A stretch of DNA of 64,000 nucleotides from an uncultured Gammaproteobacteria bacterium (lineage in GTDB: Bacteria; Patescibacteriota; Patescibacteriia; UBA11705; JABHMO01), in contig CAZAKN010000003.1 of NCBI GenBank assembly GCA_964486065.1, forward strand, positions 18,559 through 82,558, given 5' to 3'. This document shows, piece after piece, positions 513 through 55,142 of this stretch. Every line of letters begins with the position of its first letter. Position 1 is the stretch's first letter. The notes under the pieces were generated by a model. That model saw only the letters and a program-made list of their open reading frames with translations, was not told the DNA's origin and did no database searches. The position numbers were made by a program, and so were the translations under genes.

Positions 513-1088
513 ATGATCGCTTATTTAAAAGGAGAAATCATTAAAAAACAAGAAACATATTTAATCGTGGAAACCGGAGGCATCGGTTATAAAGTTTTTG
601 TTACGACTGAAATCGTGTCGCAAGCTGAGGAAGGCGAAATAATAGAGCTGTATATTCATCAGCAAGTAAAAGAAGATGTTTTGGATTTATACGGATTTGT
701 GAAATGGTCGCAATTGGAATTGTTTAAACTTCTTATTTCCATTTCCGGAGTGGGACCGAAAACAGCTCTGGGTGTTTTCGCGGCCGCGGATATTAATGAT
801 ATCAGATCCGCCATTTTAAATGAGGATGCCACCATTTTGAAAAGTGTTTCTGGTATCGGCGCTAAAACCGCGGAAAGAATCGTGCTTGAATTGAAAAATA
901 AGATTAGCGGTTTGGTTGGCGTGGATGGCATCAAGAGCAAAGATCAAATGACGGCCGATACGGACGCGGTGGAAGCTTTGACCGCTTTGGGATTTTCCGT
1001 GTCTCAAGCCAGAGAGGCTTTGAAAAAAGTTGATAATAAATTAAACGCTTCAGATAAGGTTAAAGAGGCTTTAAAGTTACTTCGTTAA
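513..1088 (+). CDS. ruvA: Holliday junction DNA helicase RuvA
   Basis: MIAYLKGEI...GIGYKVFV N-terminal OB fold, two HhH motifs (GVGPKTA, GIGAKTAERIV), C-terminal domain III. Confidence 0.9.
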   Translation: MIAYLKGEIIKKQETYLIVETGGIGYKVFVTTEIVSQAEEGEIIELYIHQQVKEDVLDLYGFVKWSQLELFKLLISISGVGPKTALGVFAAADINDIRSAILNEDATILKSVSGIGAKTAERIVLELKNKISGLVGVDGIKSKDQMTADTDAVEALTALGFSVSQAREALKKVDNKLNASDKVKEALKLLR

Positions 1089-2126
1089 ATGTTTACTTTT
1101 ATGCAGATAAAATACGCCAACAATCATGATGAAAAAATTTGGCAAGAGTTCGTAAAAATCAATTCCGCGGGCTCATTTTTGCAAGCTTGGGAATGGGGAG
1201 CGTTCGTTGAAAAAAATAATGATAGAATTTGGCGCATCATGGTTTGGGATGAGGAAGAATTGTTGGCGGTGGTTTTGATTTACAAGTCGCGATTGAAAAT
1301 CAAGCAAAATATGCTTTACGCTCCGCGTGGTCCTGTTTTAAAAGATAATCTTGATAGTCAAAAAACAAATGAAGTTTGGCGAGTTTTGCTGGAAGAATTT
1401 GATAAATTGGCGCGACAAAACGGTTCCATGGTTTTGCAATTTGATCCGCCCGAAACGGATCGTCAAAAATATGTTTTACCGTTACTTGATCGGGCCGGAT
1501 ATGTTAAAAGTGAAATGGATGTTCAGCCCGGTCATACTTTAATTTTGGATATTCGCCGAGATGAAGAAGAATTATTAAAACAAATGCACAGTAAAACAAG
1601 ATATAATATTCGTTTGGCCGGCAAAAAAGGAGTGAGCGTGAAAGTTGATAATTCAGCTTATAAAGAATTTCATGAATTGATGAAAAAAACCAATTCGCGT
1701 CATGAAATCAGTTCTTTCGCCGCTTCATATTATAAAAAATTATTGAAAATACCTTTTGTAAAACTATACTTGGCGGAAGCGGACGGTCGCATTGTCGCTG
1801 CCAATATCATGATTTTTTGGAATCATACCGCCGTATATTTATTCGGCGCGTCGGATTATGAGTATCGCAGTTTGATGGCGCCGTATTTATTGCAATGGCA
1901 AGCGATCAAAGACGCCAAAAGACAAAATATTTGGTTTTACGATTTTTGGGGAGCCGCGCCGAAAGATGCCAAAGGCAGAGAAACCAAATGGTCCGGCTTC
2001 ACCAGATTCAAGATGGGCTTTTCGCCACAAGCGGAAATTACGGAATATTTGGGCACTTATGAAAAAGCATATGCTCCGGTGAAATTGGGAGTTTACAGAT
2101 TTTTACAAAAAGTTTATAAAAGATAG
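1089..2126 (+). CDS. FemAB-family aminoacyl-tRNA-dependent peptidyltransferase (peptidoglycan bridge formation-like)
   Basis: FemAB signature blocks (LYAPRGPV, FDPPETD, YDFWGA). Start immediately follows the ruvA stop. Confidence 0.65.
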   Translation: MFTFMQIKYANNHDEKIWQEFVKINSAGSFLQAWEWGAFVEKNNDRIWRIMVWDEEELLAVVLIYKSRLKIKQNMLYAPRGPVLKDNLDSQKTNEVWRVLLEEFDKLARQNGSMVLQFDPPETDRQKYVLPLLDRAGYVKSEMDVQPGHTLILDIRRDEEELLKQMHSKTRYNIRLAGKKGVSVKVDNSAYKEFHELMKKTNSRHEISSFAASYYKKLLKIPFVKLYLAEADGRIVAANIMIFWNHTAVYLFGASDYEYRSLMAPYLLQWQAIKDAKRQNIWFYDFWGAAPKDAKGRETKWSGFTRFKMGFSPQAEITEYLGTYEKAYAPVKLGVYRFLQKVYKR

Positions 2127-2147
2127 TTTTATAATATTATAAAAAAA

Positions 2148-2172
2148 CACGGGTCGCATAGCGACCCGTTTA
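2148..2172. terminator. bidirectional intrinsic terminator hairpin (acgggtcgc-ata-gcgacccgt) with flanking A/T runs
   Basis: Perfect 9-bp stem between convergent genes. Confidence 0.7.
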
Positions 2173-2187
2173 TAATTGTGCTTTTCC

Positions 2188-2448
2188 TCATTCTCTTTTG
2201 GTGGTTTCTTCCGGCCAGTTTTCAAAAAGTTTTTCGTGTTGGCCGGTGGAAACCAGGGCAAAGGTTCTCAGTAAATGTAATCCTTCTTTGGTTTTTGCCC
2301 AGGCTTGTTTGATAAGCTTTCTTTTTTTGCCTCTTGACTTGAATTCCTTCTGCAAAATTGTCATGTGACCCCCTTTTTTTTTTGCGTGACAATGAAAGCA
2401 CCTTGGAAAAGCACTATTAATTTTATAAATTAAGGATAGCTTTGTCAA
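2188..2448 (-). CDS. small basic hypothetical protein
   Basis: ORF only; K/R-rich; possibly starts at the internal Met (MTILQKEF). Confidence 0.3.
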   Translation of the reverse strand: MTKLSLIYKINSAFPRCFHCHAKKKGGHMTILQKEFKSRGKKRKLIKQAWAKTKEGLHLLRTFALVSTGQHEKLFENWPEETTKRE

Positions 2449-2469
2449 GTTGTAAATTGCTTTCTATTC

Positions 2470-2498
2470 TTGATAAAAGTTTTAAATTTTGCTATTAT
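2470..2498 (+). promoter_or_regulatory. sigma70-like promoter TTGATA-17-TATTAT upstream of the ATP-grasp gene
   Basis: Hexamers and 17-nt spacer read directly in the sequence. Confidence 0.45.
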
Positions 2499-2596
2499 TT
2501 GCTTGTCTTATGCGGAAATTAAGTAAAAATTATAATACTATTCTTGATTTTTCAGCCACATCAAGCGACTTGTATAGGGTTTAATCAAATCCGTAC

Positions 2597-2624
2597 AGGT
2601 CGCCTGAGGCGGCCTTTTTTAATT
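2597..2624 (+). terminator. leader hairpin plus T6 (aggtcgcc-tga-ggcggcct-tttttt) inside the 5' leader of the ATP-grasp gene; candidate attenuator/riboswitch terminator
   Basis: 8-bp stem (one G-U pair) followed by TTTTTT. Lies between the predicted promoter and the SD-supported ATG at 2664. Confidence 0.45.
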
Positions 2625-2663
2625 TCCTGGCGTAAGTTGTTTCACATCAAAGGGAGGTGGCAG

Positions 2664-3803
2664 ATGTCTTTGCCGGTTGGTCGTATTGTTAACCATAATG
2701 TCGTGCAAGCTGTGGGAGGAGTTATGAGCAGATATTTGAATCATGATTTGGCGGATTGTTTGCCGGAACATGAGCTGGCTATGATTTTGGGTCTGGCCAA
2801 ATATTCTTCGCGCGCTTTGTGCATTACCGAGCCGGAAGATATTATTCAACTGGATCCGGTTTTGCGTGATCAAGTTGATAGTATTACGGCTCATTATCGT
2901 CGCGTGGGTTTACAATGTACGGATCAGATAATTTGGAGCGATGAATTCGCCAAAGCGAAAGATTATCCGGAACGGGAACTGTCGGTATTTTTTTTCGGTA
3001 GTCGCGCTCATCAAGCCAGACCCGATCAAGGTTGGTTTGACACGGCCGAGCGGATGAATCATAAAAACGAATTTATCCGTCTTTGCCATGAAATGAACAT
3101 ACTGGTGCCGGAAACACAATGTTTTGATTGCAAAAGTCGGATCAAAGACTTGAGGGAGTTAAAATATCCGCTTCGTTTCAAGCTGTCTTTCTCGGTTTCC
3201 GGTTTGGGAATTTCTTTGTGTAAAAACGATACTGATTTGGGTAAATGTTTGGAAGAAATCCCCGAGGGGGTGGCGTTCCAGGTTCAAGAAGAATTGCCGG
3301 CAAGTACGGTTTGGCTCAATGTGCAATATCAAGGTAACGGTAGAGCCAAAAGGTTACTCTTGACGGAGCAGGTCTTGGACGGTAATTCCCATGCCGGTAA
3401 CAAGCATCCGAGTGATTATGGCAATATTTGGAACTTGACCGATCCCTTGGCTGAGCGTTTGACCGGCCAAGGACTGAAAGGCGTGTTTGCTTTTGATGTG
3501 GCGGTTTGCCATGACCGCAAATTGTTGATTGAATGTAATCCCCGTTTCAACGGTAGCACTTATCCCACCGTGATTTCCACGCGGCTCAATATCCCGCAAT
3601 GGATTTCCAAAAATTTCATGACTAAATATCGTAGTATCGCAGAATTGCCGATTGAAGAGCTGGAGTATCGGCCGGAAGCTAAAAAAGGCGTGATTGTTTT
3701 TAACTGGGGCTCGGTGGATGAAGGTAAGCTTGGGATTATGTTGTGCGGTAATCAAGATGATCAGCTTTATTTGGAAAAAGCTTTGAAAACCATCCTTTCC
3801 TGA
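2664..3803 (+). CDS. ATP-grasp domain ligase (unknown substrate)
   Basis: ATP-grasp catalytic E-x-N-x-R motif (ECNPRFNGST). Start chosen at the ATG preceded by GGGAGGTG at 6-nt spacing; the track's 2544 start is TTG and would run through the leader hairpin. Confidence 0.6.
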   Translation: MSLPVGRIVNHNVVQAVGGVMSRYLNHDLADCLPEHELAMILGLAKYSSRALCITEPEDIIQLDPVLRDQVDSITAHYRRVGLQCTDQIIWSDEFAKAKDYPERELSVFFFGSRAHQARPDQGWFDTAERMNHKNEFIRLCHEMNILVPETQCFDCKSRIKDLRELKYPLRFKLSFSVSGLGISLCKNDTDLGKCLEEIPEGVAFQVQEELPASTVWLNVQYQGNGRAKRLLLTEQVLDGNSHAGNKHPSDYGNIWNLTDPLAERLTGQGLKGVFAFDVAVCHDRKLLIECNPRFNGSTYPTVISTRLNIPQWISKNFMTKYRSIAELPIEELEYRPEAKKGVIVFNWGSVDEGKLGIMLCGNQDDQLYLEKALKTILS

Positions 3804-3857
3804 GAGCATCAGAGTGCGAGCGAACATTTTCGTTTGCGCTCTTTTTAAAAAAGCATT

Positions 3858-4985
3858 ATGTTTATATATATGAAAGAAACTTTATCCTTGATTGAAAAAA
3901 TCGTAAATATTCCCACGCCGAGCGGTGATCGCGAGGCGTTTTTACATTGTGTTGATGAATTGAAAAAATATTTGGGTAAAGGATTTTTTTATCATGAAAT
4001 TGAATCCGAGGGTTTTACTTCTTTGCTGTTCACGCAACAAAAAGATTTAAAAAAATTTGATATTTTATTATACGCACATTTGGATGTGGTGATGCCCGAG
4101 GATGGACCCATTGCTTTTTCATCAAATGAAGATTTGCTTCACGGTAGTGGAGTGGCGGATATGAAAAGTTACGCGGTCGCTTTGGCGCGGATATTGAAGA
4201 ATGAGCGATTTGTTAATTTGAAAATAGGTTTGGTTTTGGTGCCGGATGAAGAAATTGGCGGAGCCAACGGATTGAAGCAAGTTTTGCGTAACGGTTACAC
4301 CGCGGATTTGGCGATTGTTCCCGACGCGGGGATGGGGAAAAGCATTGTGGTTAAGGAAAAAGGTATTTTCATGTTTAAACTTTCCGTTGAAACGAAAGGT
4401 GGCCATGGTTCGCGTCCTTGGGAGTGTGAGAACGCGGCTTTGAAGTTAATTGAAACATATCAAGAAATGATTCGCGATTTGCAAATTGAAAACGAAAAAG
4501 AAAATGATGGGATGACTTTGAATTTGTTTAAAATTCAAGCCGGAGAAAAAATCAATCAAGCCCCCGCGGCAGCGGAAATCAATCTGGATTGTCGTTATGG
4601 AGAAACGGAGCAAAAAAATCGTTTGATAAAATATTTGGAAAAGTTGCGTGAAGAAAAAAATATTGAGTTTCAAGAAATCATAAGTGGGGATTTGTTTAAA
4701 ATCAAAGAGGATAATCAATTTTTAGCGGAATTTAAAAAAGTATTTGAACGGCATTACAATCAAAAGATTCCATTGACATGGTATCCGGCCGGATCTGACG
4801 CGCGGTATTTGGCGACGGTGGGAATTCCGGTGATCATGTTCCAAGCTCGCGGTGGAGGTTATCATTCCCGTGAAGAGTGGCTCAATTGGCCTGAGTTGCT
4901 GAAATTCACCCAAGGTTTACAAAAATATTTAAAAAAACTGGATGAAGAGTATCAAAAATATTTCAATAAAAAAACAAGCTCTTAA
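3858..4985 (+). CDS. M20-family metallopeptidase/deacylase (ArgE/DapE-like)
   Basis: M20 motifs AHLDVV (H-x-D), GVADMKS, DEEIGG. Confidence 0.75.
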   Translation: MFIYMKETLSLIEKIVNIPTPSGDREAFLHCVDELKKYLGKGFFYHEIESEGFTSLLFTQQKDLKKFDILLYAHLDVVMPEDGPIAFSSNEDLLHGSGVADMKSYAVALARILKNERFVNLKIGLVLVPDEEIGGANGLKQVLRNGYTADLAIVPDAGMGKSIVVKEKGIFMFKLSVETKGGHGSRPWECENAALKLIETYQEMIRDLQIENEKENDGMTLNLFKIQAGEKINQAPAAAEINLDCRYGETEQKNRLIKYLEKLREEKNIEFQEIISGDLFKIKEDNQFLAEFKKVFERHYNQKIPLTWYPAGSDARYLATVGIPVIMFQARGGGYHSREEWLNWPELLKFTQGLQKYLKKLDEEYQKYFNKKTSS

Positions 4986-5992: not shown

Positions 5993-7465
5993 ATGAAGAT
6001 GAAGAAATCAGCTCAATTTTTTTATGCTTGCTTGAGTTTTTTGCTGGGCGTATCCTTGGGGGAAATTATTGATTTGCCGAATGTTTGGTTTTACGCGATT
6101 GTGGCAATTTTTATCAATGTTTTGTTTTTTAAAAGCGGAAAGACTTGGCATTTCCGTTTGAAATATTTTCTATTGATTTTGCTCGTTGCTTACGCCGGAG
6201 TTTTGCTTCGTGATAAAGCGGATCCGCAAATCAATGAAACTCACATTGCTTCACTTAACGAACAAAAGGTGGAATTTATGGCAATTATTTCAGCGGAGCC
6301 GGATCGTCGTTTGGATAAAATGAAATTGACCGTGGCTCCGCTTGATTATGATGGTTTGGTTTTATTGAATACTTCGCTGTATCCCGAGTTTGAATATGGT
6401 GAGAAGATTTCCGTGCAATGCCGGCTGCAAGCCCCTGAACCCATTGAAGATTTCAGTTATGACAAGTATTTGGCGAGATATGGAATATATTCGGTTTGTT
6501 ATCGTCCGTATATCAAGAAGATTGATCAAGGTTTCGGCAATCCGCTTATGGCGGGAATTTTCAAATTTAAAAAAGACATGGAAAGCAAAATTAATCGTAC
6601 GGTGGCCGAACCGCAAGCGGCTCTGACTGCGGGGATTTTAATCGGTTCGCGACAGGGGATGCCGGAGTACTTGAATCAGCAATTTAATCATACGGGCATT
6701 ACGCATATTATCGCGATTTCCGGATTCAATATTACCATTATTATCGTGATTTTAATGAATACGGGGACAGCGTTACGAATAAATCGTAAAAAAATGATTT
6801 GGTTGATTGCTTTGGGGTTGATATTTTTTGTGATTTTGACCGGCGCCAGTGCTTCGGTGGTAAGGGCGGCGATTATGGGTTTTATCGTGGCTTTGGCCAA
6901 ACATCTCGGTCGTACCGGAAATGTGCGAAATGTGTTGATTTTATCCGCTGTGATTATGACGACGGTAAATCCAAAAATTTTAGTTTGGGATGCCGGATTC
7001 CAATTATCATTCATTTCCACGATCGGTTTGATTTATTTTTCTCCCATATTGATGAAAGTCGGCAAATGGTTGCCGGAAACATTCGGTTTGAGAGAAAACA
7101 CCGTTTCTACCCTGAGTGCGATAATTTTCACTTTGCCTTTTATTTTGTTCCAATTCGGTCGTTTATCCATCGTGGCGCCGATCGTCAATATGTTGGTTTT
7201 GCCGATTATTCCGCTGGCTATGTTGATCGGTTTTTTTCAAGTTTTGTTCGCGTATCTTTGGTTGCCACTCGGAGAAATTATCGGTTGGTTTAGCTGGCTT
7301 TTGCTTGGCTATGTAATTAAAATCGTGGATATATTCGCCAAGTTGTCTTGGGCTTCGGTGGAAATTGAAGTTGAATGGTGGACGGCTTTGCTTATGTATA
7401 TTTTGCTTTTTACGATGATCATTATTTTCATAAATAAAAAAGCGACTTCCGGTAAAGTCGCTTAA
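5993..7465 (+). CDS. comEC: ComEC/Rec2 competence channel protein (DUF4131 plus Competence domain only, no MBL domain)
   Basis: Multiple TM helices and the Competence-domain motif GITHIIAISGFNITII. The protein ends before any lactamase domain. Confidence 0.8.
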   Translation: MKMKKSAQFFYACLSFLLGVSLGEIIDLPNVWFYAIVAIFINVLFFKSGKTWHFRLKYFLLILLVAYAGVLLRDKADPQINETHIASLNEQKVEFMAIISAEPDRRLDKMKLTVAPLDYDGLVLLNTSLYPEFEYGEKISVQCRLQAPEPIEDFSYDKYLARYGIYSVCYRPYIKKIDQGFGNPLMAGIFKFKKDMESKINRTVAEPQAALTAGILIGSRQGMPEYLNQQFNHTGITHIIAISGFNITIIIVILMNTGTALRINRKKMIWLIALGLIFFVILTGASASVVRAAIMGFIVALAKHLGRTGNVRNVLILSAVIMTTVNPKILVWDAGFQLSFISTIGLIYFSPILMKVGKWLPETFGLRENTVSTLSAIIFTLPFILFQFGRLSIVAPIVNMLVLPIIPLAMLIGFFQVLFAYLWLPLGEIIGWFSWLLLGYVIKIVDIFAKLSWASVEIEVEWWTALLMYILLFTMIIIFINKKATSGKVA

Positions 7466-7974
7466 AGTATTAGCGTTTAGCCAATCATTCCAAAGCTTTT
7501 TGCATGCCCGGACCGTAAACACCGTCGGCTTGCCCCGGTTTTAAACAGTTGAGTAAAATTAACAGTTTTTGAACGCGTAAAACTTTCTCATTACTAGTGT
7601 TGTAATTCATTTGATAAACATCATCAACTTGTCAAGGTTTATGGGTTACCGTGTATTGGCCGACTGAGCGCAATCTTGTGGCTGTGGTACTGTTCTGCAA
7701 TTTTTTGGTTTTTTTCATTATTTCTTGCAATTTGAGCGACTGAGACACTTCGTCACCAAATTTGCTTTCGTTAAAATAACTTGCTATCAGCATAAAAGGG
7801 AAAATGGAGATGGTTAACCCGATTCCCATTTTATCTTCAGCGGTTAGTTTTGTCATGACAAAAGCCTTTGTTTGGTTTGTGAATGTTCAACATTTAAATA
7901 TATGTTACGAGGCTACTTCTATCAAACGCGAGTATTATGATATAATAATAAAAAGAATAATTAATTTAAAAATT

Positions 7975-9396
7975 ATGAAGAAAACCTTAGCTATTTTCGT
8001 GTTGACGACCATGCTTTTGTCAGTTTTTTCTTTGGGAGTCAATCAAGTTTCAGCGCATGGTGACGGTTATACGGATTGTGAAAAAGATCCGGTTTACGCC
8101 AAAGATTTTACCGCTAGTCCCACCGTTCATTTGCGTTTGCGCGAAAGAGCGTGCATGACCGATTCGCCGGTAATTACGGTGTTAAGTCCCAATTCAAACT
8201 ATCAGATTATCGCGGAAACGGACGGCTGGTATAAAGTGAAACTTGATGACGGTACCACCGGTTGGGCCGGTTCAGCTTTGATGCAAGCCACAAGCGCTGA
8301 TTATGCCAATAATGAAAAATTAAGCGATGCTTATGAAGCCGATGAAAAAACGATTGAAGCGAATGAATCATTAAATAAGGAAGAAAAGCAAATAACCGAT
8401 CGCGTCAAAGGCTACATTTTATTACAAGTGGAATCAGCCGGAGAAGCTTGGTATGTTGATCCGGTGGAAGAAAAAAGATTTTACATGAAAGATGGTCCGA
8501 CCGCTTATGAAATGATGCGCAGTTTCGGTTTGGGGATTTCCAATGGTGATTTGGAAAAACTTTTGGCCGGTGATTACAAATTGACTGATCGTTTGAAAGG
8601 TCGTATTGTTCTGGCCGTGCATCGCAATGGTGAAGCTTATTACATTCACCCCAAGGATCGTTCCGTGCATTATTTGAAAAACGGTGTCGAGGCTTATCGT
8701 ATTATGCGTTTGCTCAGTTTAGGCATAACCAATCGGGATTTGCTGAAAATTCGCGCGAAAAATGTCGTGAAAAACAAAATCGCGGAAAAGAAAAATACGG
8801 CTCCCGTAGAACATAATGGTTCCATTACTTTATCCGCGGAGGAAAGTAACGGTAATGTTTATTTAGATTGGTCGGTTGACGGTTTTAATTCCGCTAAAGG
8901 ATTTAAAGTGGTGATTTCAGAAGAGCCAAATCCGGTTTATCCCGGCAATACATACCATTATCATGCTTCTTCGGAAAAGCGCGCTGACACATGGACCAAT
9001 CTGGCTTCAGGGAAAACTTACCATTTCCGAGTTTGCGAATATTTAGGCGGGGAATGCGGAGTTTACAGCAATGATGTCAGTGTAACCATGTCCGGTGAAA
9101 TTATTGATAATTCTCAAGGTGTTATCACTTTGGATGGTGAAGTTAGTTCGGAAAACAAAGTTTTGTTGAATTGGTCTTTAAGTGAAATGATTTCACCAAA
9201 GGGATTTAAAGTGGTGATTTCAGAAGAGCTAAATCCGGTTTATCCCGGTAACACATATCATTATTTGAGTAATTCCGAAGTGCGTACCGATACTTGGAGC
9301 GGATTAAACAGTGGTACATATCATTTCCGAGTTTGCGAATATTTGGGTGGGAAGTGCGGAGTTTATAGTAATAATTTTCAAGTAACAATTGAATAG
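7975..9396 (+). CDS. secreted repeat protein: signal peptide, SH3b-like domain, two ~55-aa repeats, two Fn3-like repeats
   Basis: Signal peptide MKKTLAIFVLTTMLLSVFSLGVNQVSA; SH3b-like YQIIAETDGWYKVKLDDGTTGW; internal protein and DNA repeats. Confidence 0.6.
   Translation: MKKTLAIFVLTTMLLSVFSLGVNQVSAHGDGYTDCEKDPVYAKDFTASPTVHLRLRERACMTDSPVITVLSPNSNYQIIAETDGWYKVKLDDGTTGWAGSALMQATSADYANNEKLSDAYEADEKTIEANESLNKEEKQITDRVKGYILLQVESAGEAWYVDPVEEKRFYMKDGPTAYEMMRSFGLGISNGDLEKLLAGDYKLTDRLKGRIVLAVHRNGEAYYIHPKDRSVHYLKNGVEAYRIMRLLSLGITNRDLLKIRAKNVVKNKIAEKKNTAPVEHNGSITLSAEESNGNVYLDWSVDGFNSAKGFKVVISEEPNPVYPGNTYHYHASSEKRADTWTNLASGKTYHFRVCEYLGGECGVYSNDVSVTMSGEIIDNSQGVITLDGEVSSENKVLLNWSLSEMISPKGFKVVISEELNPVYPGNTYHYLSNSEVRTDTWSGLNSGTYHFRVCEYLGGKCGVYSNNFQVTIE
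8897..9389 (+). repeat. two ~190-bp near-identical direct repeats (8897-9087 and 9198-9389) encoding the Fn3-like modules
   Basis: Long identical stretches, e.g. ggatttaaagtggtgatttcagaagag... and ...catttccgagtttgcgaatattt. Confidence 0.8.
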
Positions 9397-9470: not shown

Positions 9471-9968
9471 ATGTATAAGGAACAAAGAGTGGGGATGTTA
9501 GTGGATGTGCAAAATCTTTATTACAGCGCGCGGGTTTTGTATAAGAAAAAGGTTAATTTTGGCGCGGTTTTAAAAGAAGGCGTCGGTGATCGTAAATTGA
9601 TTCGCGCGATTGCTTACGGAATCAGCACGGCCGAAGGTATGGAAGAAAAATTTTTTGACGCTTTGGTGAAATCGGGTTTTGAAGTCAAAACCAAAGATTT
9701 ACAAATATTTCCGGGTGGAGCGAAGAAAGGCGATTGGGATGTGGGCATTACCGTGGACGCGATTAAACTTTCAAAAAATTTGGATGTTATCATTATTGTG
9801 TCCGGTGACGGCGATTATTTGCCTCTGTTGGAATACTTGTCTGCCACATCGGGTTGTCGCGTGGAAGTGATGGCTTTTAAAGAATCGGGTAGCGCCAAAT
9901 TGATTGAAAGTGCGGACAGTTTTATTGATTTGTCAGCTAATAAAAGAAAATTTTTAATGGCAAGATAA
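9471..9968 (+). CDS. NYN-domain (LabA/DUF88-like) putative ribonuclease
   Basis: NYN motifs VDVQNLYYSA and IIIVSGDGDYLPLL. Confidence 0.75.
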   Translation: MYKEQRVGMLVDVQNLYYSARVLYKKKVNFGAVLKEGVGDRKLIRAIAYGISTAEGMEEKFFDALVKSGFEVKTKDLQIFPGGAKKGDWDVGITVDAIKLSKNLDVIIIVSGDGDYLPLLEYLSATSGCRVEVMAFKESGSAKLIESADSFIDLSANKRKFLMAR

Positions 9969-9971
9969 AAG

Positions 9972-19891: not shown

Positions 19892-20135
19892 AAAAAGCGA
19901 AAGAATGATTGATTCGCAAGAAAGTCAGAAAGAGCAAATTCCGCAGAATGAAATGGAGTTACTATTACCGAATCTGCGCACCGGTTTGGGTAAGCCATCC
20001 AAGCGTCGTTTCGGCACTTGGGTTTCCGTTATTTTGTTCTTTTTCTTTCTAGGTGTTTTTTACACTTTGAGTGGCGTGATTTTTCCGAACCCCACCCCGC
20101 CGAACGATCATGAACAATCTGTCGTTCACCGATAA
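19878..20135 (+). CDS. small hypothetical membrane protein (one TM helix)
   Basis: SD AAGGAGA; overlaps the upstream stop by 14 nt; hydrophobic VSVILFFFFLGVFYTLSGVIF. Confidence 0.4.
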   Translation: MMSNEKSERMIDSQESQKEQIPQNEMELLLPNLRTGLGKPSKRRFGTWVSVILFFFFLGVFYTLSGVIFPNPTPPNDHEQSVVHR

Positions 20136-20143
20136 TATCAATC

Positions 20144-20174
20144 TCGCTTCGCTCGCAAGGCGAAGCTTTTTTAT
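20144..20174 (+). terminator. intrinsic terminator (cgcttcgc-tcgcaa-ggcgaagc-tttttt)
   Basis: Hairpin plus T6. Confidence 0.7.
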
Positions 20175-20235
20175 TTCATTATTTTGCAAAACAAGACTTG
20201 CGAGATTTATCCATTTTTATATACTTAAAGAAAAT

Positions 20236-20994
20236 ATGACTGTTAAAAAAAGATTGAGTTCCGCTTCGCGGGGATTTGCCAAAGGAAATTTTGTCATAAT
20301 CGCCGGTCCTTGCGCGGTGGAGAATCGTAACAATTATTTAAAAACATGTCGCGCCTTACAATCCACCGGACGCGTGGATTTTTTTCGCGGTGGCGCTTTT
20401 AAACCGCGCACCAAAGCGGAATCGTTTCAAGGTTTGGGTGAAGATGGTTTGAAAATAATGCTTGAAGTGAAAGAAAAATATCAGACGCTATTGATTAGCG
20501 AATGTTTATCGGAAAAGCACATTGAACTAATGGAAAAATATGTTGACATTATCCAAGTCGGTTCTCGTAATATGTATAATTATGAATTACTGAAAGCGCT
20601 TGGGAAAATCAAAACACCGATTTTATTGAAACGAGGTTTGAGCGCCACGATTGATGAATGGTTGTCAGCCGCTGACTACATTATTCGCGGTGGCAATAAA
20701 AATGTGATTCTTTGCGAAAGAGGTATCAGAAGTTTTGATGACAAATATACTCGTAATGTTTTGGATATTTCCGCTGTACCGGTTGTTAAAAAGATTTCTT
20801 CATTACCGATAATCGTGGATCCAAGTCACGCGACTGGAAGAAGAGATTTGATTATTCCACTATCCGTCGCGGCGAAGGCGGTGGGCGCGGATGGCATAAT
20901 GGTGGAAGTAAACGCTGAGCCAGAGCAAGCTTTGTGTGATGGCCGGCAATCTTTGAACATTGCTGAATTTAAACAATTGCTTAAAAAAATATAA
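20236..20994 (+). CDS. 3-deoxy-7-phosphoheptulonate (DAHP) synthase, type I-beta / KdsA-like fold
   Basis: IIAGPCAVE signature; (beta/alpha)8 motifs KRGLSAT and IVDPSHATGRRD. Confidence 0.8.
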   Translation: MTVKKRLSSASRGFAKGNFVIIAGPCAVENRNNYLKTCRALQSTGRVDFFRGGAFKPRTKAESFQGLGEDGLKIMLEVKEKYQTLLISECLSEKHIELMEKYVDIIQVGSRNMYNYELLKALGKIKTPILLKRGLSATIDEWLSAADYIIRGGNKNVILCERGIRSFDDKYTRNVLDISAVPVVKKISSLPIIVDPSHATGRRDLIIPLSVAAKAVGADGIMVEVNAEPEQALCDGRQSLNIAEFKQLLKKI

Positions 20995-47900: not shown

Positions 47901-49325
47901 TTACACTTTTGATTTTCGTCGTAGAACTATCCATGGAGTTTTCAGCATTATCCAAAAGTCCAATTTTAGCGACCAATTTTCAATATAATAAGTATCCAGT
48001 TTTACTTCTTCGTTAAAATCCAAATCGCTACGGCCGGAAATTTGTGCCAAGCCGGTAACTCCCGGTTTGATGTCAAGAACTCTTCTTTGCGCTTTGGTGT
48101 ATTGAGTGACTTCGCGAGGTTGATGAGGGCGAGGTCCGACCAAGCTCATGTTGCCGATCCAAACATTAAAAAATTGTGGCAATTCATCAAGTGAAGTTCT
48201 TTCCAGAAATTTACCGATTTTGGTGCGACGAGGATCGTTCAGTATTTTATAAACCGGTCCTTGTCGTTCAGATTGTTTTTCAATCAAATCTTTTTCAAAT
48301 TCCAAAACCGCTTTTTGGTCGGTGTATTTTTCAAACTGTTTACCGGTGCAATATTTGGTGTACATGGAACGGAATTTATAAGTATTAAAAGTACCTTTAC
48401 GCGTAACTCGTTCATTTTTATAAATGGCCGGACCGGAATCTTCAATTTTAATCAACAAAGCAAGCAATAACATAAGCGGTGAAAAAACAATTATCAAAAT
48501 CGTGCTGAAGACGAAGTCAATGATTCTTTTGATTATTTTACCCCAACCGTCCAACTTGGTTTTTCTGATTTCAATAATCGGCAAGCCGGCATACATGTGA
48601 AATTCCACATTGGTGGTACGAGCTTCAAATTGACCGGCGGTATATTTGAAAACAATGTTATAAGCATTGCAAAAATCCAGAAGTTTTACCGATTGACTGC
48701 GAGAAAGTCCGGCATCGGCTTGGATTATTTCATCCAAAGAATATATTTCATTTATTTTTTCCAATTCATCCTGATTGAAGTCTTTCATTTTTTTAATAAC
48801 TTTGTAACCGAATTCAGGATATTTTTTAAAATACGCGGTTAGCTCATCAGTGTATTTATCGTTGCCGACGATTACGACATTGTGCGCGCCCCAGCCTTTT
48901 TTTAAACTGTAATTTTGAACTTTGCGCATGATTATTCTGACGATTGAAACGAAAATCATGGCCAAAATCCAAGCGGTTAAAACAATAAAACGAGAAGCAA
49001 ATATTTCTCTGACAAAAAACATGTAAATCAGCACCGCGGTCATGCCCGTGGAGCAAGCTAAAATTATTTTCGCGAGTTCGTCCGTGATTTTTCTTTTTTT
49101 AAAATTGTACAATCCCGACCAAATAAAAAAAATCAGCCAAATAGTGGCGATGATTAAAGTTGAAAATAAATACGCTTTGAAAGATAATTCAAAAATTACC
49201 GGTCTGATTTCTTGAACATCGCTTTGATAACGCAAAACATAAGCTAAAAGTCCGGCTGAAATCAAAGCCAAATAATCAAAAGGAATTTTTAAAAAAGTAA
49301 AAAATAATTCGGTTTTCTTTTTCAT
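47901..49325 (-). CDS. polyprenyl-phosphate sugar phosphotransferase (WbaP/bacterial sugar transferase family)
   Basis: C-terminal motifs RTSLDELPQ and MSLVGPRP; N-terminal TM helices. Start trimmed to MKKKTELFF because the track's upstream extension overlaps rnpB. Confidence 0.8.
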   Translation of the reverse strand: MKKKTELFFTFLKIPFDYLALISAGLLAYVLRYQSDVQEIRPVIFELSFKAYLFSTLIIATIWLIFFIWSGLYNFKKRKITDELAKIILACSTGMTAVLIYMFFVREIFASRFIVLTAWILAMIFVSIVRIIMRKVQNYSLKKGWGAHNVVIVGNDKYTDELTAYFKKYPEFGYKVIKKMKDFNQDELEKINEIYSLDEIIQADAGLSRSQSVKLLDFCNAYNIVFKYTAGQFEARTTNVEFHMYAGLPIIEIRKTKLDGWGKIIKRIIDFVFSTILIIVFSPLMLLLALLIKIEDSGPAIYKNERVTRKGTFNTYKFRSMYTKYCTGKQFEKYTDQKAVLEFEKDLIEKQSERQGPVYKILNDPRRTKIGKFLERTSLDELPQFFNVWIGNMSLVGPRPHQPREVTQYTKAQRRVLDIKPGVTGLAQISGRSDLDFNEEVKLDTYYIENWSLKLDFWIMLKTPWIVLRRKSKV

Positions 49326-49383
49326 ATAATTATTATAGCACAATAAGCGTTTCAGCCGTATGTATAAAGATTTATTTCCAAAG

Positions 49384-49688
49384 CCCCGAACAAGCGAGTA
49401 AGCCGGATTCTGTTTTAACCGTAATCTATCTGGGACGACCGTCGCCGATCGCCTTAAGCGGGCTACCAAATTTGCCCTTGCACTCGAGTAAGGATTTAGC
49501 CGTTTCACCCGCCATGTTGCCATGGCGACTATTCCCGAAGGAATCCGAATCAATCACTTGATCCAGCGTCTCTGCTCGCACCTCTATCTCACGATTGACA
49601 GGAATTACCTGCTACCCGTGTTAATTGAATAACCGAGTGTCCGGACTTTCCTCCCTTGAAGAGGGTAACGGAACTGCTTGTTCGGAAC
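49384..49688 (-). ncRNA. rnpB: RNase P RNA (bacterial, compact ~305 nt)
   Basis: Minus strand reads P1 ccgaacaagc...gcttgttcgg, P4 GGGAGGAAAGUCCGGACAC, AGCAGGUAA, GGGUGAAACGGC and 3' ACAGAAUCCGGCUUA. GC-rich island inside AT-rich DNA. Confidence 0.8.
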
Positions 49689-53210: not shown

Positions 53211-55142
53211 CTATTCCCAGTTGCGAGAAGTTTTAATATACCAATTGTTAATGTTACTTAAACGATTGGCGGGAGTGATGATCTGAGTGGTTTCAAAGCC
53301 TTTGATTTTTTTGCTTTGAGGGTATGTATAAGTTGGATTGAATAAAAATATGGCGGGTACCTCTTGAGCCAAGAGTTCCTGAAAGAGACTGTATTTTTCT
53401 GCTCTGGCTTCCGGATCGCTTAGCCTTCTGGCATCCTCCAAAAGTTCATCTATTTCCGTATTTTTTACGGAAGTCAGATTAAGCCCCGGATAATCCCTTT
53501 GTTCCGAATGCCAAAAAGGGAAAGGATCTGGATCATGTCCCAATATTTGACTGTATAATAATATTTCGTAATCGCGATTTTTTATTACTTGCTGTATTTC
53601 TTCAGCGGAAACGATGTGTAAGTTCAGCTTGGCGCCGATCTGTTGCCATTCTTTTTGAACTTCTTTGGCGATTTGAACATTTTCCGGTTGGTCAACGGTG
53701 GTCAAGCTGAATTCCAAATACACCTCTTTTTTCTTTCTGACTTGGAAAGGATATTGTTCAGCCTGTTCCGTAACGGAATTGTTTTGTTCCAAGTTTTCAT
53801 CTTCTTCCGTTGACTCTTCCGAATCGTTTTCTTCCTCGGTTTCAATTACATAATCAGTCAATTTCCAGCCAGCGTTTTCCAGATCGCTTTTGGCCAAGTC
53901 GGGATTGAAAGGGAAATCGGTAATGTCCGGATTATATCCCAGCGAGCCCGGCAAAATACAAGAATTGGTGGTTTGAGCTTCGGAACGTAAAATTTCGCTG
54001 ACGATTTTTTCTTTATTGGTGGCGTTGCTGAGAGTTTCTCGCATATCCACATCTTGTAATAGGCGATTGTTGTCACCGTTAAAAAATAGCGCGGTGTATT
54101 GAGGTAAGTGTAATAAATGGAAGTTTAAATTACGATTATTGATTACGCGAGGTTGCAATTCTTTCGGCAGATAGCTGAGACCTTCAATGTTTTTATTGTT
54201 TAAAGCCGCTACCGCGGAGTCAAAATTTTCAAAAAATTTGAAAATGATTTCTTTAACATAAGGAACTTGATTATAAAAACCTTGATTGCTTTTCAGATTT
54301 AATTTTTTAATTTCCCCATTTTTGCTTTTGGTTAAAGAAACGAATTGATAAGGCCCGGAACCGATGGGTTTTAAATTATATTCCGTGATCATCATGTTTT
54401 CCGGTTCAATGTTGCTCCAAATGTGTTCCGGTAAAATTCCCACGGTCAAACTTTCCAAAAATGGAGCAAAAGGTTCTTCCAGAATGAATTCCACCGTATA
54501 TTCATCAAGTTTGGTTACTTGAATATCTTTAAAAGTAAAATAAAGCGGGGTTTTGGTTTTGGGATTTTTGATTCTGGAAAAAGTGAATTCAACATCATCA
54601 GCATCCAGTTTTTCCCCATCATGCCAATAAACATTTTGTTTTATGTGAAAAGTATATATTCTTTGGTCTTCGCTAAGTGTCCACGAGTCAGCCAAATCAT
54701 TTTGCAGGGATTGTTCCGCGTATTTTATCAAGCCTGAAAAAATCAAAGAACTGATATCAAGATCCACATCGTTGGCGCCGGCGAAAAGAGGATTTACATA
54801 TTTCGGAGAGCCAACCAGTCCTTCGGTGTAAGAGCCGCCGTCTTTCGGGCCCAGTTCCGAATGCGTCCAATAAATATTGATGCAAAGAGAAACCAAAGCG
54901 ATTAAAACAATACTGCCCAATATACGCATCAACATTTTTTCGCCATCCGACAAAAATTGTTTTAAGTGGGTCAATTGTTTGAAATTCGGAATTTTTTTCT
55001 TAGCCGTTAATTTATGCACAAGCTTTTGATCGTAAGTTTGGTATTGAAGTAATTTTGTAGCTTGCTTTTTTTTGAGACGATTGATTTTTTCGGCTTTGAA
55101 TTTAAACCAAAAATCTTTTAGTGAAGACACAAAAATTGTCAA
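53211..55142 (-). CDS. membrane-anchored solute-binding protein family 5 (OppA/DppA-like) without adjacent permease genes
   Basis: SBP-5 sequence (YTFHIKQNVYWHDGEKLDADDVEFTF) with an N-terminal TM anchor. Confidence 0.7.
   Translation of the reverse strand: MTIFVSSLKDFWFKFKAEKINRLKKKQATKLLQYQTYDQKLVHKLTAKKKIPNFKQLTHLKQFLSDGEKMLMRILGSIVLIALVSLCINIYWTHSELGPKDGGSYTEGLVGSPKYVNPLFAGANDVDLDISSLIFSGLIKYAEQSLQNDLADSWTLSEDQRIYTFHIKQNVYWHDGEKLDADDVEFTFSRIKNPKTKTPLYFTFKDIQVTKLDEYTVEFILEEPFAPFLESLTVGILPEHIWSNIEPENMMITEYNLKPIGSGPYQFVSLTKSKNGEIKKLNLKSNQGFYNQVPYVKEIIFKFFENFDSAVAALNNKNIEGLSYLPKELQPRVINNRNLNFHLLHLPQYTALFFNGDNNRLLQDVDMRETLSNATNKEKIVSEILRSEAQTTNSCILPGSLGYNPDITDFPFNPDLAKSDLENAGWKLTDYVIETEEENDSEESTEEDENLEQNNSVTEQAEQYPFQVRKKKEVYLEFSLTTVDQPENVQIAKEVQKEWQQIGAKLNLHIVSAEEIQQVIKNRDYEILLYSQILGHDPDPFPFWHSEQRDYPGLNLTSVKNTEIDELLEDARRLSDPEARAEKYSLFQELLAQEVPAIFLFNPTYTYPQSKKIKGFETTQIITPANRLSNINNWYIKTSRNWE

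Follow-up and report, generated by a model that had tools for sequence, protein, structure and literature searches.

Three genes near the start of the 64,000-nucleotide stretch of DNA analysed here (contig CAZAKN010000003.1 of an uncultured, Patescibacteria-like bacterium; the whole stretch is called the window) raise the question of whether a FemX-like transferase of the FemAB family, an ATP-grasp ligase and an M20 peptidase that are encoded near one another also act in one pathway. A first-pass annotation of this DNA had read them as consecutive members of one co-directional cluster that could specify an unusual peptidoglycan cross-bridge or stem-peptide modification, with a small peptide-conjugate pathway as an alternative. 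That observation proved largely right in that Pfam matches, a structure model and sequence motifs place all three protein families there, and it is partly confirmed, with the corrections given below; a three-gene pathway is not supported. We favour, at a probability of roughly 0.6, a reading based on sequence comparison in which the region comprises two unrelated units, and in which the ATP-grasp and M20 genes would form an attenuation-controlled dipeptide ligase/peptidase module, probably acting on an Asp-X dipeptide. The features of the region are the following.

26-472: U32 peptidase (context), the window copy of the U32-RuvA-FemAB backbone
513-1088, plus strand: RuvA (context; TIGR00084 ruvA, 8.9e-56)
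1089-2126, plus strand: FemX-like gene of the FemAB family (Pfam FemAB PF02388, 156 bits against a cut-off of 24, E=1.5e-45; FemX structures)
2149-2169, both strands: bidirectional intrinsic terminator, 9-bp stem with 7 G-C pairs
2188-2364, minus strand: open reading frame (ORF) for a basic protein of 58 amino acids (aa), with its own ribosome-binding site and a promoter-like site at 2448-2420; function not assigned
2470-2498, plus strand: sigma-70-like promoter of the ATP-grasp/M20 operon, TTGATA-17-TATTAT with extended TG
2510-2584, plus strand: leader ORF, MRKLSKNYNTILDFSATSSDLYRV and a stop, with its only Phe codon at codon 14 (2549-2551)
2565-2603, plus strand: antiterminator hairpin from RNA folds, with an outer extension at 2555-2613
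2597-2621, plus strand: leader intrinsic terminator, 8-bp stem (2597-2615) with 6 G-C pairs, then a T-run
2664-3803, plus strand: ATP-grasp ligase, predicted amino-acid (dipeptide) ligase (fold model, motif, homologues)
3820-3837, plus strand: weak hairpin and T-run between the ATP-grasp and M20 genes
3858-4985, plus strand: M20 (ArgE/DapE/CPG2-like) dinuclear metallopeptidase or deacylase (Pfam and NCBIfam matches, metal ligands)
5993-7465, plus strand: ComEC (context), at the far edge of the variable slot

The ATP-grasp and M20 genes form a conserved two-gene operon

We asked whether the trio is conserved in relatives, using ATP-grasp homologues gathered from a protein database, a one-genome-per-species set and metagenomes (loci carry L numbers below). 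An M20 gene lies 3' of the ATP-grasp gene, on the same strand, in 13 of 13 distinct Patescibacteria-like loci with enough downstream flank (L001, L002, L005, L011, L012/L096, L014, L091-L095, L171 and L173), and it follows directly in all of them but L014, where about 1.5 kb lie between the two. Pairwise identities of the ATP-grasp and M20 proteins are correlated (r=0.77, ten loci). No third conserved gene was found in the Patescibacteria operons, in which the downstream genes are sulfatase-like, Kazal-domain or unmatched. Of the roughly 13 distinct Patescibacteria-like loci, on the other hand, only two lineages (window/L001 and L172) have the FemAB gene as a neighbour of the ATP-grasp gene, and the proteins of these two lineages are only ~50% identical to each other. 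It is the ATP-grasp and M20 genes alone that are kept together: they are a conserved pair and a self-contained two-gene operon, an arrangement that the small peptide-conjugate alternative does fit.

The layout of the window tells the same two units apart. The stop codon of RuvA abuts the start of the FemAB gene (TAAATG at 1086-1091), and for this reason we assign the latter to the upstream transcription unit; the FemX-like gene would be transcribed with RuvA, the transcript ending at the terminator at 2149-2169. This strong bidirectional terminator, which ends the RuvA-FemAB unit on one strand and the small ORF on the other, lies together with that ORF between the FemAB and ATP-grasp genes, so that the three genes are not strictly consecutive. 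The 58-aa product is rich in lysine and arginine, and its ORF has a GGGGG ribosome-binding site and a promoter-like site that scores 11/12; it has no Pfam or PADLOC match, and among the relatives it occurs only in L001 (93%-identical), where it is called as a gene. We considered it as a remnant of the GIY-YIG gene that fills the same slot in L174 and rejected this (BLASTP E=0.4).

The ATP-grasp gene does have its own promoter, at 2470-2498, and a leader terminator, at 2597-2615 plus the T-run, as the first-pass annotation had proposed. The promoter is conserved in L001, and an alternative TATAAT at 2533-2538 is not. The ATP-grasp ORF was called mechanically as 2544-3803, from a TTG at 2544; its true start is most likely the ATG at 2664, giving a predicted 379 aa, and we prefer this start because homologues align from there and have the same length and because a AAGGGAGG site lies just 5' of it. 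The M20 gene may start at the ATG at 3870 instead of 3858, and the hairpin at 3820-3837 could set the ratio of ATP-grasp to M20 product.

What, then, is the FemX-like gene doing next to this operon? In L174 and in L175/L176, which lack the ATP-grasp/M20 pair and have FemAB proteins that are 54% identical, the gene order is U32-RuvA-FemAB, then a GIY-YIG gene or a Y1 transposase, then ComEC. The window has the same U32-RuvA-FemAB...ComEC backbone, with the small ORF, the ATP-grasp and M20 genes and a SpoU methylase gene in the slot. Because relatives without the pair keep the neighbours of FemAB, we place FemAB in a housekeeping block and the ATP-grasp/M20 cassette in a variable slot; FemAB closes the conserved U32-RuvA-FemAB block and lies outside the operon. 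In L172, too, a separate promoter and a Phe leader precede the ATP-grasp gene, 3' of the FemAB stop. PADLOC, run on five genes, matched none of them to a defence system and so gives no support for a defence island in the variable slot.

The protein itself has the FemAB fold and the length of FemX (345 aa), without the coiled coil of FemA/B, and its closest solved structures are FemX of S. aureus (6snr, 1.5e-16) and of W. viridescens (8e-11). It differs from FemX proper, the lipid II:glycine glycyltransferase or UDP-MurNAc-pentapeptide:L-Ala transferase, in scoring below the equivalog cut-off (NF047883, 65.3 bits against 500), and we found no functional link to the adjoining ATP-grasp/M20 operon. 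Judged by these matches, 1089-2126 encodes a FemX-like transferase whose predicted donor and acceptor use is that of an aminoacyl-tRNA-dependent peptidoglycan bridge enzyme, and which is ordinary for Patescibacteria, across which there are more than 3000 FemAB homologues.

The ATP-grasp ligase and its hydrolase partners

The Pfam family ATP-grasp_3 matches the ATP-grasp ORF weakly (E=0.004, below the cut-off). The fold is clearer: with an AlphaFold model built from 18 homologues (pLDDT 90), the top 50 matches listed by Foldseek against the PDB are all ATP-grasp enzymes. The E-x-N-x-R motif noted in the first-pass annotation is present as E290-C-N292-P-R294, and D278, E290, N292 and R294 are invariant across 18 ATP-grasp sequences and align with D288, D301, N303 and R305 of LdmS. 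These four are the predicted Mg/ATP and catalytic residues, and H243, N246, N296, G297 and S298 would line the pocket. The protein has the fold, the Mg2+/phosphate ligands and the catalytic Arg of the ATP-grasp superfamily.

The ligase belongs to a small family, with 166 clusters at 50% identity (E<=1e-30) among 1.84 billion representatives and 304 loci in 185,579 species genomes (one genome per species). Members occur in a few Patescibacteria and in many cyanobacteria and Chromatiales-type gammaproteobacteria, with identities of 40-47% and about 50 invariant residues across these phyla. No Pfam or NCBIfam model names the family, and literature searches turned up no prior description of it. 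Two paralogous copies stand side by side in divergent orientation in L050 and L028 (Acaryochloris).

In a profile search of solved structures the first match is the L-aspartate–L-methionine ligase LdmS (7r8p; S. aureus SAOUHSC_02373; E=5e-11). LdmS also comes first with Foldseek, followed by BesA and the Streptomyces peptide ligases 8ynd and 3wvq (TM ~0.7, 15% identity); PurK and PurT rank lower in the structure searches, and RimK is marginal, with chains at E>0.5. Because LdmS, BesA and the peptide ligases outrank PurK and PurT, and RimK is marginal, the protein does not fall into the RimK or PurK families, which the first-pass annotation had named as the outcome that would speak against peptide ligation. 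The searches support a place nearest to ligases that form amide bonds on amino acids or peptides (LdmS, BesA, PGM1-type). The family is not LdmS, judging by the LdmS equivalog model (NF047900, 16.9 bits against a cut-off of 475).

In LdmS, Arg305, Asn255, Asn307 and Ser309 hold aspartate, and Arg47 and Tyr252 complete the six required residues (PMC9486568). A HMMER alignment pairs LdmS N255, R305, N307 and S309 with the identical N246, R294, N296 and S298 of the window protein; S298 is Ala in most members of the family outside Patescibacteria. Since the residues that hold aspartate in LdmS have these identical counterparts, our guess is that aspartate may be one substrate of the ligase.

The partner protein matches both M20 domains in Pfam (PF01546 Peptidase_M20, 2.6e-22; PF07687 M20_dimer, 4.4e-12). 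H74, D76, D101, E131, E132, D156 and H336, together with the lid residue H183, are invariant in ten operon-partner M20s; their roles, as known from DapE and CPG2, give the protein the metal ligands and catalytic Glu of peptidase M20 in addition to its catalytic and dimerisation domains. It misses every equivalog cut-off, among them those of DapE (NF006399, 117.9 against 381 bits) and TIGR01910 (122 against 217.6 bits), and its best solved relative is the uncharacterised M20 protein 2rb7, followed by carboxypeptidase G2. A DapE/ArgE-like M20 is the partner in most Patescibacteria loci, and that of L005 is PepT-like (TIGR01883, 314 bits, above the cut-off). Elsewhere in the window, 53211-55142 (minus strand) encodes a substrate-binding protein of the OppA/DppA type, for oligo- or dipeptides (SBP_bac_5, 7.9e-69), a possible entry route for peptides on which the M20 protein might act.

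Outside Patescibacteria the ligase has other partners. Among the 129 non-Patescibacteria loci with enough flank, 49 (38%) have an Asparaginase_2 gene of the isoaspartyl peptidase/asparaginase type (Pfam, 5.8e-98) immediately 3' on the same strand; this neighbour was seen in gammaproteobacteria and Acaryochloris, at loci that include L008, L013, L028 and L050, and an MFS/BT1 transporter takes its place in ten further non-Patescibacteria loci. Three non-orthologous small-amide hydrolases thus recur next to the ATP-grasp gene, an indication that the ligase makes or uses a small peptide or amide, and aspartyl linkages are suggested by two of the three hydrolase types.

The leader of the operon

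How is the pair controlled? The answer is clearest in relatives, where a consensus promoter is followed by a short Phe/aromatic-rich ORF of 15-32 aa and then by a hairpin with a T-run. A Phe-run leader ORF overlaps alternative hairpins in L002, L173, L005, L011, L091-L093, L014 and L172, and the loci with Phe/aromatic leaders represent five independent lineages. The leader peptides are these.

L014: MKHIYSSNFFFFFGASRGW
L011: MDYAKNNWFFFFSRH
L091: MNYTKNNWLFFDFFSCHKR
L093: MNYTKNNWFFFNFFSRHER
L172: MKIASNNFVFFYFDRFSR
L002: MKDLTAKIGNLFFNFYYFWFREEASFCYCYLK
L173: MPALTIKTGNLLFNFYYFWFRQEAGFCHFYCL
L005: MTTYGSLQQYTVFDLGIFFLGFFWVFLLQGG

Against dinucleotide-preserving shuffles of the eight upstream regions, the aromatic (F/W/Y) score reached p = 0.000-0.052 per locus and the Phe-only score p = 0.002-0.126. 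The Rfam model Phe_leader (RF01859) matches L093 below threshold (31.8 bits, E=0.04, gathering score 55). When L011 and L091-L093 are aligned, an invariant GCGATAGG contains or follows the leader stop and can pair with CCTATCGC, a segment that shares positions with the 5' arm of the terminator; in the stem of the terminator there is a compensatory change from C-G to T-A.

We then scanned ribosome positions by folding each leader with ViennaRNA while the ribosome footprint was masked codon by codon. In 8 of 8 relatives the terminator does not form until the ribosome has left most of the Phe/aromatic run behind. The switch is no more than two codons away from the end of the run in six (L011, L093, L091, L172, L014 and L005), and falls part-way through the run, after NLFFN, in L002 and L173. 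As the stall codons are runs of Phe, the operon of these relatives would respond to the charging of Phe-tRNA.

The window leader spans 160 nt including the terminator hairpin, and its RNA folds at -49.8 kcal/mol (z = -5.0 against shuffled sequences; antiterminator fold z = -5.0 and -4.9). The 3' arm of the antiterminator overlaps the 5' arm of the terminator. The leader aligns with those of relatives (GATTTTTCAGCCACATCAAGCGA against GACTTTTTTAGCTGCCATAAGCGA in L091, with equal length from the ATG to the T-run), and its predicted switch comes after codon 15, one codon past the sole Phe codon. Positions 2555-2621 are identical between the window and L001, with about 7 substitutions in the flanking leader, a marginal sign of selection. 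The window would have an attenuator of the same design as those of the relatives, with a Phe specificity that has decayed, and the amino acid sensed is uncertain because a single Phe codon remains. The regulation by tRNA charging that the first-pass annotation had suggested agrees well with the Phe-codon attenuators of relatives; the window leader has lost its Phe run. Rfam returned no riboswitch, T-box or Phe_leader for the window leader, its matches being microRNA and small-RNA models at chance level; in the rest of the window we found no other intergenic Phe-run leader, almost all matches lying inside or antisense to long ORFs, which gives an idea of the background rate. In literature searches, leader-peptide or ribosome-mediated attenuation was not reported from the Candidate Phyla Radiation.

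The leaders of relatives resemble the Phe attenuators of the E. coli pheL/pheA kind (RF01859) in their promoter, their 15-32-aa Phe-run ORF and their mutually exclusive hairpins, and the L014 peptide can be compared with E. coli PheL. They differ in having two alternative hairpins in place of the classical 1:2/2:3/3:4 arrangement, and in controlling a ligase/peptidase operon and not Phe biosynthesis or PheRS.

In L005 the leader terminator is separated from the ATP-grasp start by a tRNA-Val(TAC) gene (9898-9970), and in L091 the minus strand carries a tRNA-Phe(GAA) gene (4033-4107), ~550 nt upstream of the Phe leader. L091 (~4780-4980), L092/L093 (equivalent positions) and L011 (7780-7970) share a conserved, strongly self-complementary stretch of ~200 nt, placed between the leader terminator and the ATP-grasp start; this stretch, in which there are long inverted repeats such as GGAATTCATCCTTTAGAA.../...TTCTAAAGGATGAATTTC, has only chance-level Rfam matches and may be a second RNA element. 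In the window, 20110-20994 (plus strand) encodes 3-deoxy-7-phosphoheptulonate (DAHP) synthase (NF006421, 360 bits against a cut-off of 335; TIGR01361, 331 bits), the first enzyme of aromatic amino-acid synthesis. It is unexpected in a Patescibacteria-like genome and of possible interest given the Phe-sensing leaders of relatives; no other shikimate-pathway gene stands beside it.

Two further features of the window touch neither unit. The gene at 7804-9396 (plus strand) encodes a 530-aa protein with a signal-like N-terminus, an SH3_3 domain and two near-identical C-terminal repeats, GFKVVISEE[PL]NPVYPGNTYHY...FRVCEYLGG[EK]CGVYSN. A class A RNase P RNA (49383-49684, minus strand, 107 bits) overlaps the extended 5' end of a sugar-transferase ORF (47901-49553), and for this reason we place the true start of that ORF further downstream.

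What the operon may make

The chemistry and the physiological role that we infer for the operon would be as follows. The ATP-grasp enzyme would join two amino acids by an amide bond via an acyl-phosphate, most plausibly with aspartate as one of the two, and the M20 enzyme would hydrolyse either this product or a small peptide or N-acyl amino acid related to it, so that the two together would set the pool of a dipeptide and its free amino acids. In the leader, a ribosome that reaches the stop codon would mask the 5' arm of the antiterminator and let the terminator form; a ribosome stalled upstream would leave the antiterminator intact, and transcription would read through.

There is a close parallel to such a module. 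In Staphylococcaceae, ldmS and hmrA, the latter encoding an M20D Met-X dipeptidase, form a two-gene operon that lies behind an S-box riboswitch or CodY/CymR sites (PMC9486568). Both systems are two-gene operons in which an amino-acid ligase of the ATP-grasp type is combined with an M20 peptidase; each has a leader that senses shortage, of Met/SAM by the S-box there and through a Phe-codon leader peptide in the relatives here; and LdmS is the best match of the window ligase in both sequence and structure. They differ in gene order, which is reversed, in the peptidase, which is ArgE/DapE/CPG2-like (M20A-like) here and M20D there, in the use of ribosome-mediated attenuation instead of a riboswitch, and in their hosts, which are Patescibacteria, cyanobacteria and Chromatiales in our case and Firmicutes in the other. 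With its adjacent, presumably co-transcribed M20 gene and its leader attenuators, which in relatives would respond to an amino acid, the operon is of the LdmS type by analogy of arrangement and not by orthology.

Several observations weigh against a dipeptide module of this kind. It is paradoxical that a ligase and a hydrolase should be expressed together under amino-acid starvation. Identity between the window ligase and LdmS is ~15%, and only four of the six required LdmS residues are matched: Tyr252 is replaced by an invariant His243, and Arg47 lies outside the aligned region and cannot be aligned by sequence, with the invariant R50 as its candidate counterpart. Aspartate is no more than a lead, since part of the R-x-N-G-S motif is common to ATP-grasp enzymes in general. 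On the side of regulation, the Phe richness of the window leader, with its one Phe codon, is no better than that of shuffled sequences; L012/L096, L095 and L097 have no leader peptide of the Phe/aromatic kind, and that of L171 is hydrophobic; and the predicted ribosome-free fold is the antiterminator, unlike the classical trp design. Finally, three family members of ~845 aa (3 of the 166 clusters; P0271, P0296 and P0367, which include Rhodoferax MDD5028382.1 and Synechococcus sp. CS-1328 WP_259720803.1) fuse the ATP-grasp part to a full-length MurF-like ligase (NF010693, 109-160 bits; TIGR01143, 96-127 bits), which hints at a link to cell-wall precursors and recalls the way in which Ddl feeds MurF.

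A more specific version holds that this is an undescribed family of Asp-X ligases, which in Patescibacteria would make an aspartyl-phenylalanine-type dipeptide that serves, with the peptidase, as an amino-acid buffer or trap under a Phe-tRNA-sensing leader switch; we regard it as possible and, taken whole, doubtful. The Asparaginase_2 partners and the rare Mur-ligase fusions also bring cyanophycin metabolism to mind, in which CphA1 has an ATP-grasp part and Mur-like domains and isoaspartyl dipeptidases take part. The fused domain, however, is MurF-like and not CphA-M-like, CphA1 chains match the ligase weakly (E=0.025-0.09), the cyanophycin synthetase model (TIGR02068 cya_phycin_syn, cut-off 850 bits) gives the fusion proteins 15.7 bits, and there is no cyanophycinase gene near the ATP-grasp gene.

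The fusions could also be taken to mean that the pair works like Ddl or VanA together with VanX, independently of FemX: the ligase would supply an alternative dipeptide to a MurF-type enzyme, and the peptidase would remove the competing one. Weak profile matches to VanA and Ddl agree with this. Yet the best of these, to VanA (E=0.0011), covers only ~60 residues of the ATP-binding region and does not place the protein in the Ddl/Van family, and LdmS is a far better match (5e-11 against 1e-3). The E-x-N-x-R motif is degenerate or lost in two of the three fusions, and no MurF-like gene was found next to any of the ~170 standalone ATP-grasp loci. Control by Phe leaders and a hydrolase partner of the asparaginase type point to amino-acid metabolism instead, and we consider this explanation unlikely.

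Could all three genes still build and trim an unusual cross-bridge or stem peptide, as first proposed? Such a pathway would have a precedent in the Enterococcus D-aspartate ligase Aslfm, an ATP-grasp enzyme that reportedly builds the cross-bridge (Bellais 2006). FemAB does lie directly 5' of the ATP-grasp gene in two lineages as distant as those described above, and the M20 protein does resemble DapE. Against this, the trio is absent from the 11 other Patescibacteria-like loci, FemAB keeps its U32-RuvA and ComEC neighbours where the pair is missing, a terminator and a minus-strand ORF stand between the units, and even in L172 the ligase gene is set off by a promoter and Phe leader of its own 3' of the FemAB stop. 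Ligases with 40-47% identity occur in Gram-negative cyanobacteria and Chromatiales, and the DapE equivalog is missed widely (118 against 381 bits). A joint pathway of the trio is in our view quite unlikely.

The order of small ORF, hairpin, ATP-grasp gene and peptidase gene also resembles that of clusters for RiPPs, peptides made by the ribosome and modified after translation. The upstream short ORFs might then be RiPP- or pheganomycin-like precursors that the ligase modifies or ligates and the M20 enzyme processes, with the hairpin setting the ratio of precursor to enzyme, and the structural neighbours of the ligase do include PGM1-type ligases (3wvq, 8ynd), which use ribosomal peptides as substrates. 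We hold this to be highly improbable. The peptides of 15-32 aa have little in common beyond Phe/aromatic runs, the leader stops coincide with the 5' arm of the antiterminator or adjoin it, the predicted switch sits at or near the end of the run, and Rfam Phe_leader gives a weak match. Family members from other phyla lack a conserved small ORF, and the match to MdnC (5ig9), a graspetide ligase, reaches E=0.14; the Phe-rich leader ORFs, which are not conserved outside Patescibacteria, do not fit graspetide systems, with their conserved Thr/Ser-Asp/Glu-Lys precursor core and MdnB/C-type ligase.

That the ligase attaches an amino acid to a small carrier protein from which the M20 enzyme releases the product, as in LysX/LysK, which is likewise an ATP-grasp and M20 pairing, is barely credible. 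In its favour are a weak match of the M20 protein to the [LysW]-lysine hydrolase model NF003367 (44 bits) and ORFs of 72-75 aa 5' of the ATP-grasp gene in L008 and L009 (Chromatiales, cyanobacteria). Against it, the cut-off of that model is 363 bits, RimK/LysX-type chains match the ligase at E>0.5, there is no LysW-like carrier and no LysZ/Y/J gene among the neighbours, and the 72-75-aa ORFs are not conserved and have no Pfam match.

For annotation, the FemX-like gene of the window is not to be read as part of the ATP-grasp/M20 pathway. A small cross-phylum ATP-grasp family with recurrent hydrolase partners is now defined, without an assigned function. The ATP-grasp/M20 operon would be a second, independent case of the paradox of LdmS and HmrA, which the authors of that work noted as well, in that a ligase and a hydrolase are expressed together under amino-acid starvation and the ligase is induced by scarcity of the very amino acid that it consumes (PMC9486568). 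Patescibacteria are believed to subsist on amino acids that they scavenge, and the sensing and buffering of amino acids in them is almost undescribed. If the reading as a family of Asp-X ligases is right, it would mean a previously unnoticed Asp-containing dipeptide metabolite common to three phyla.

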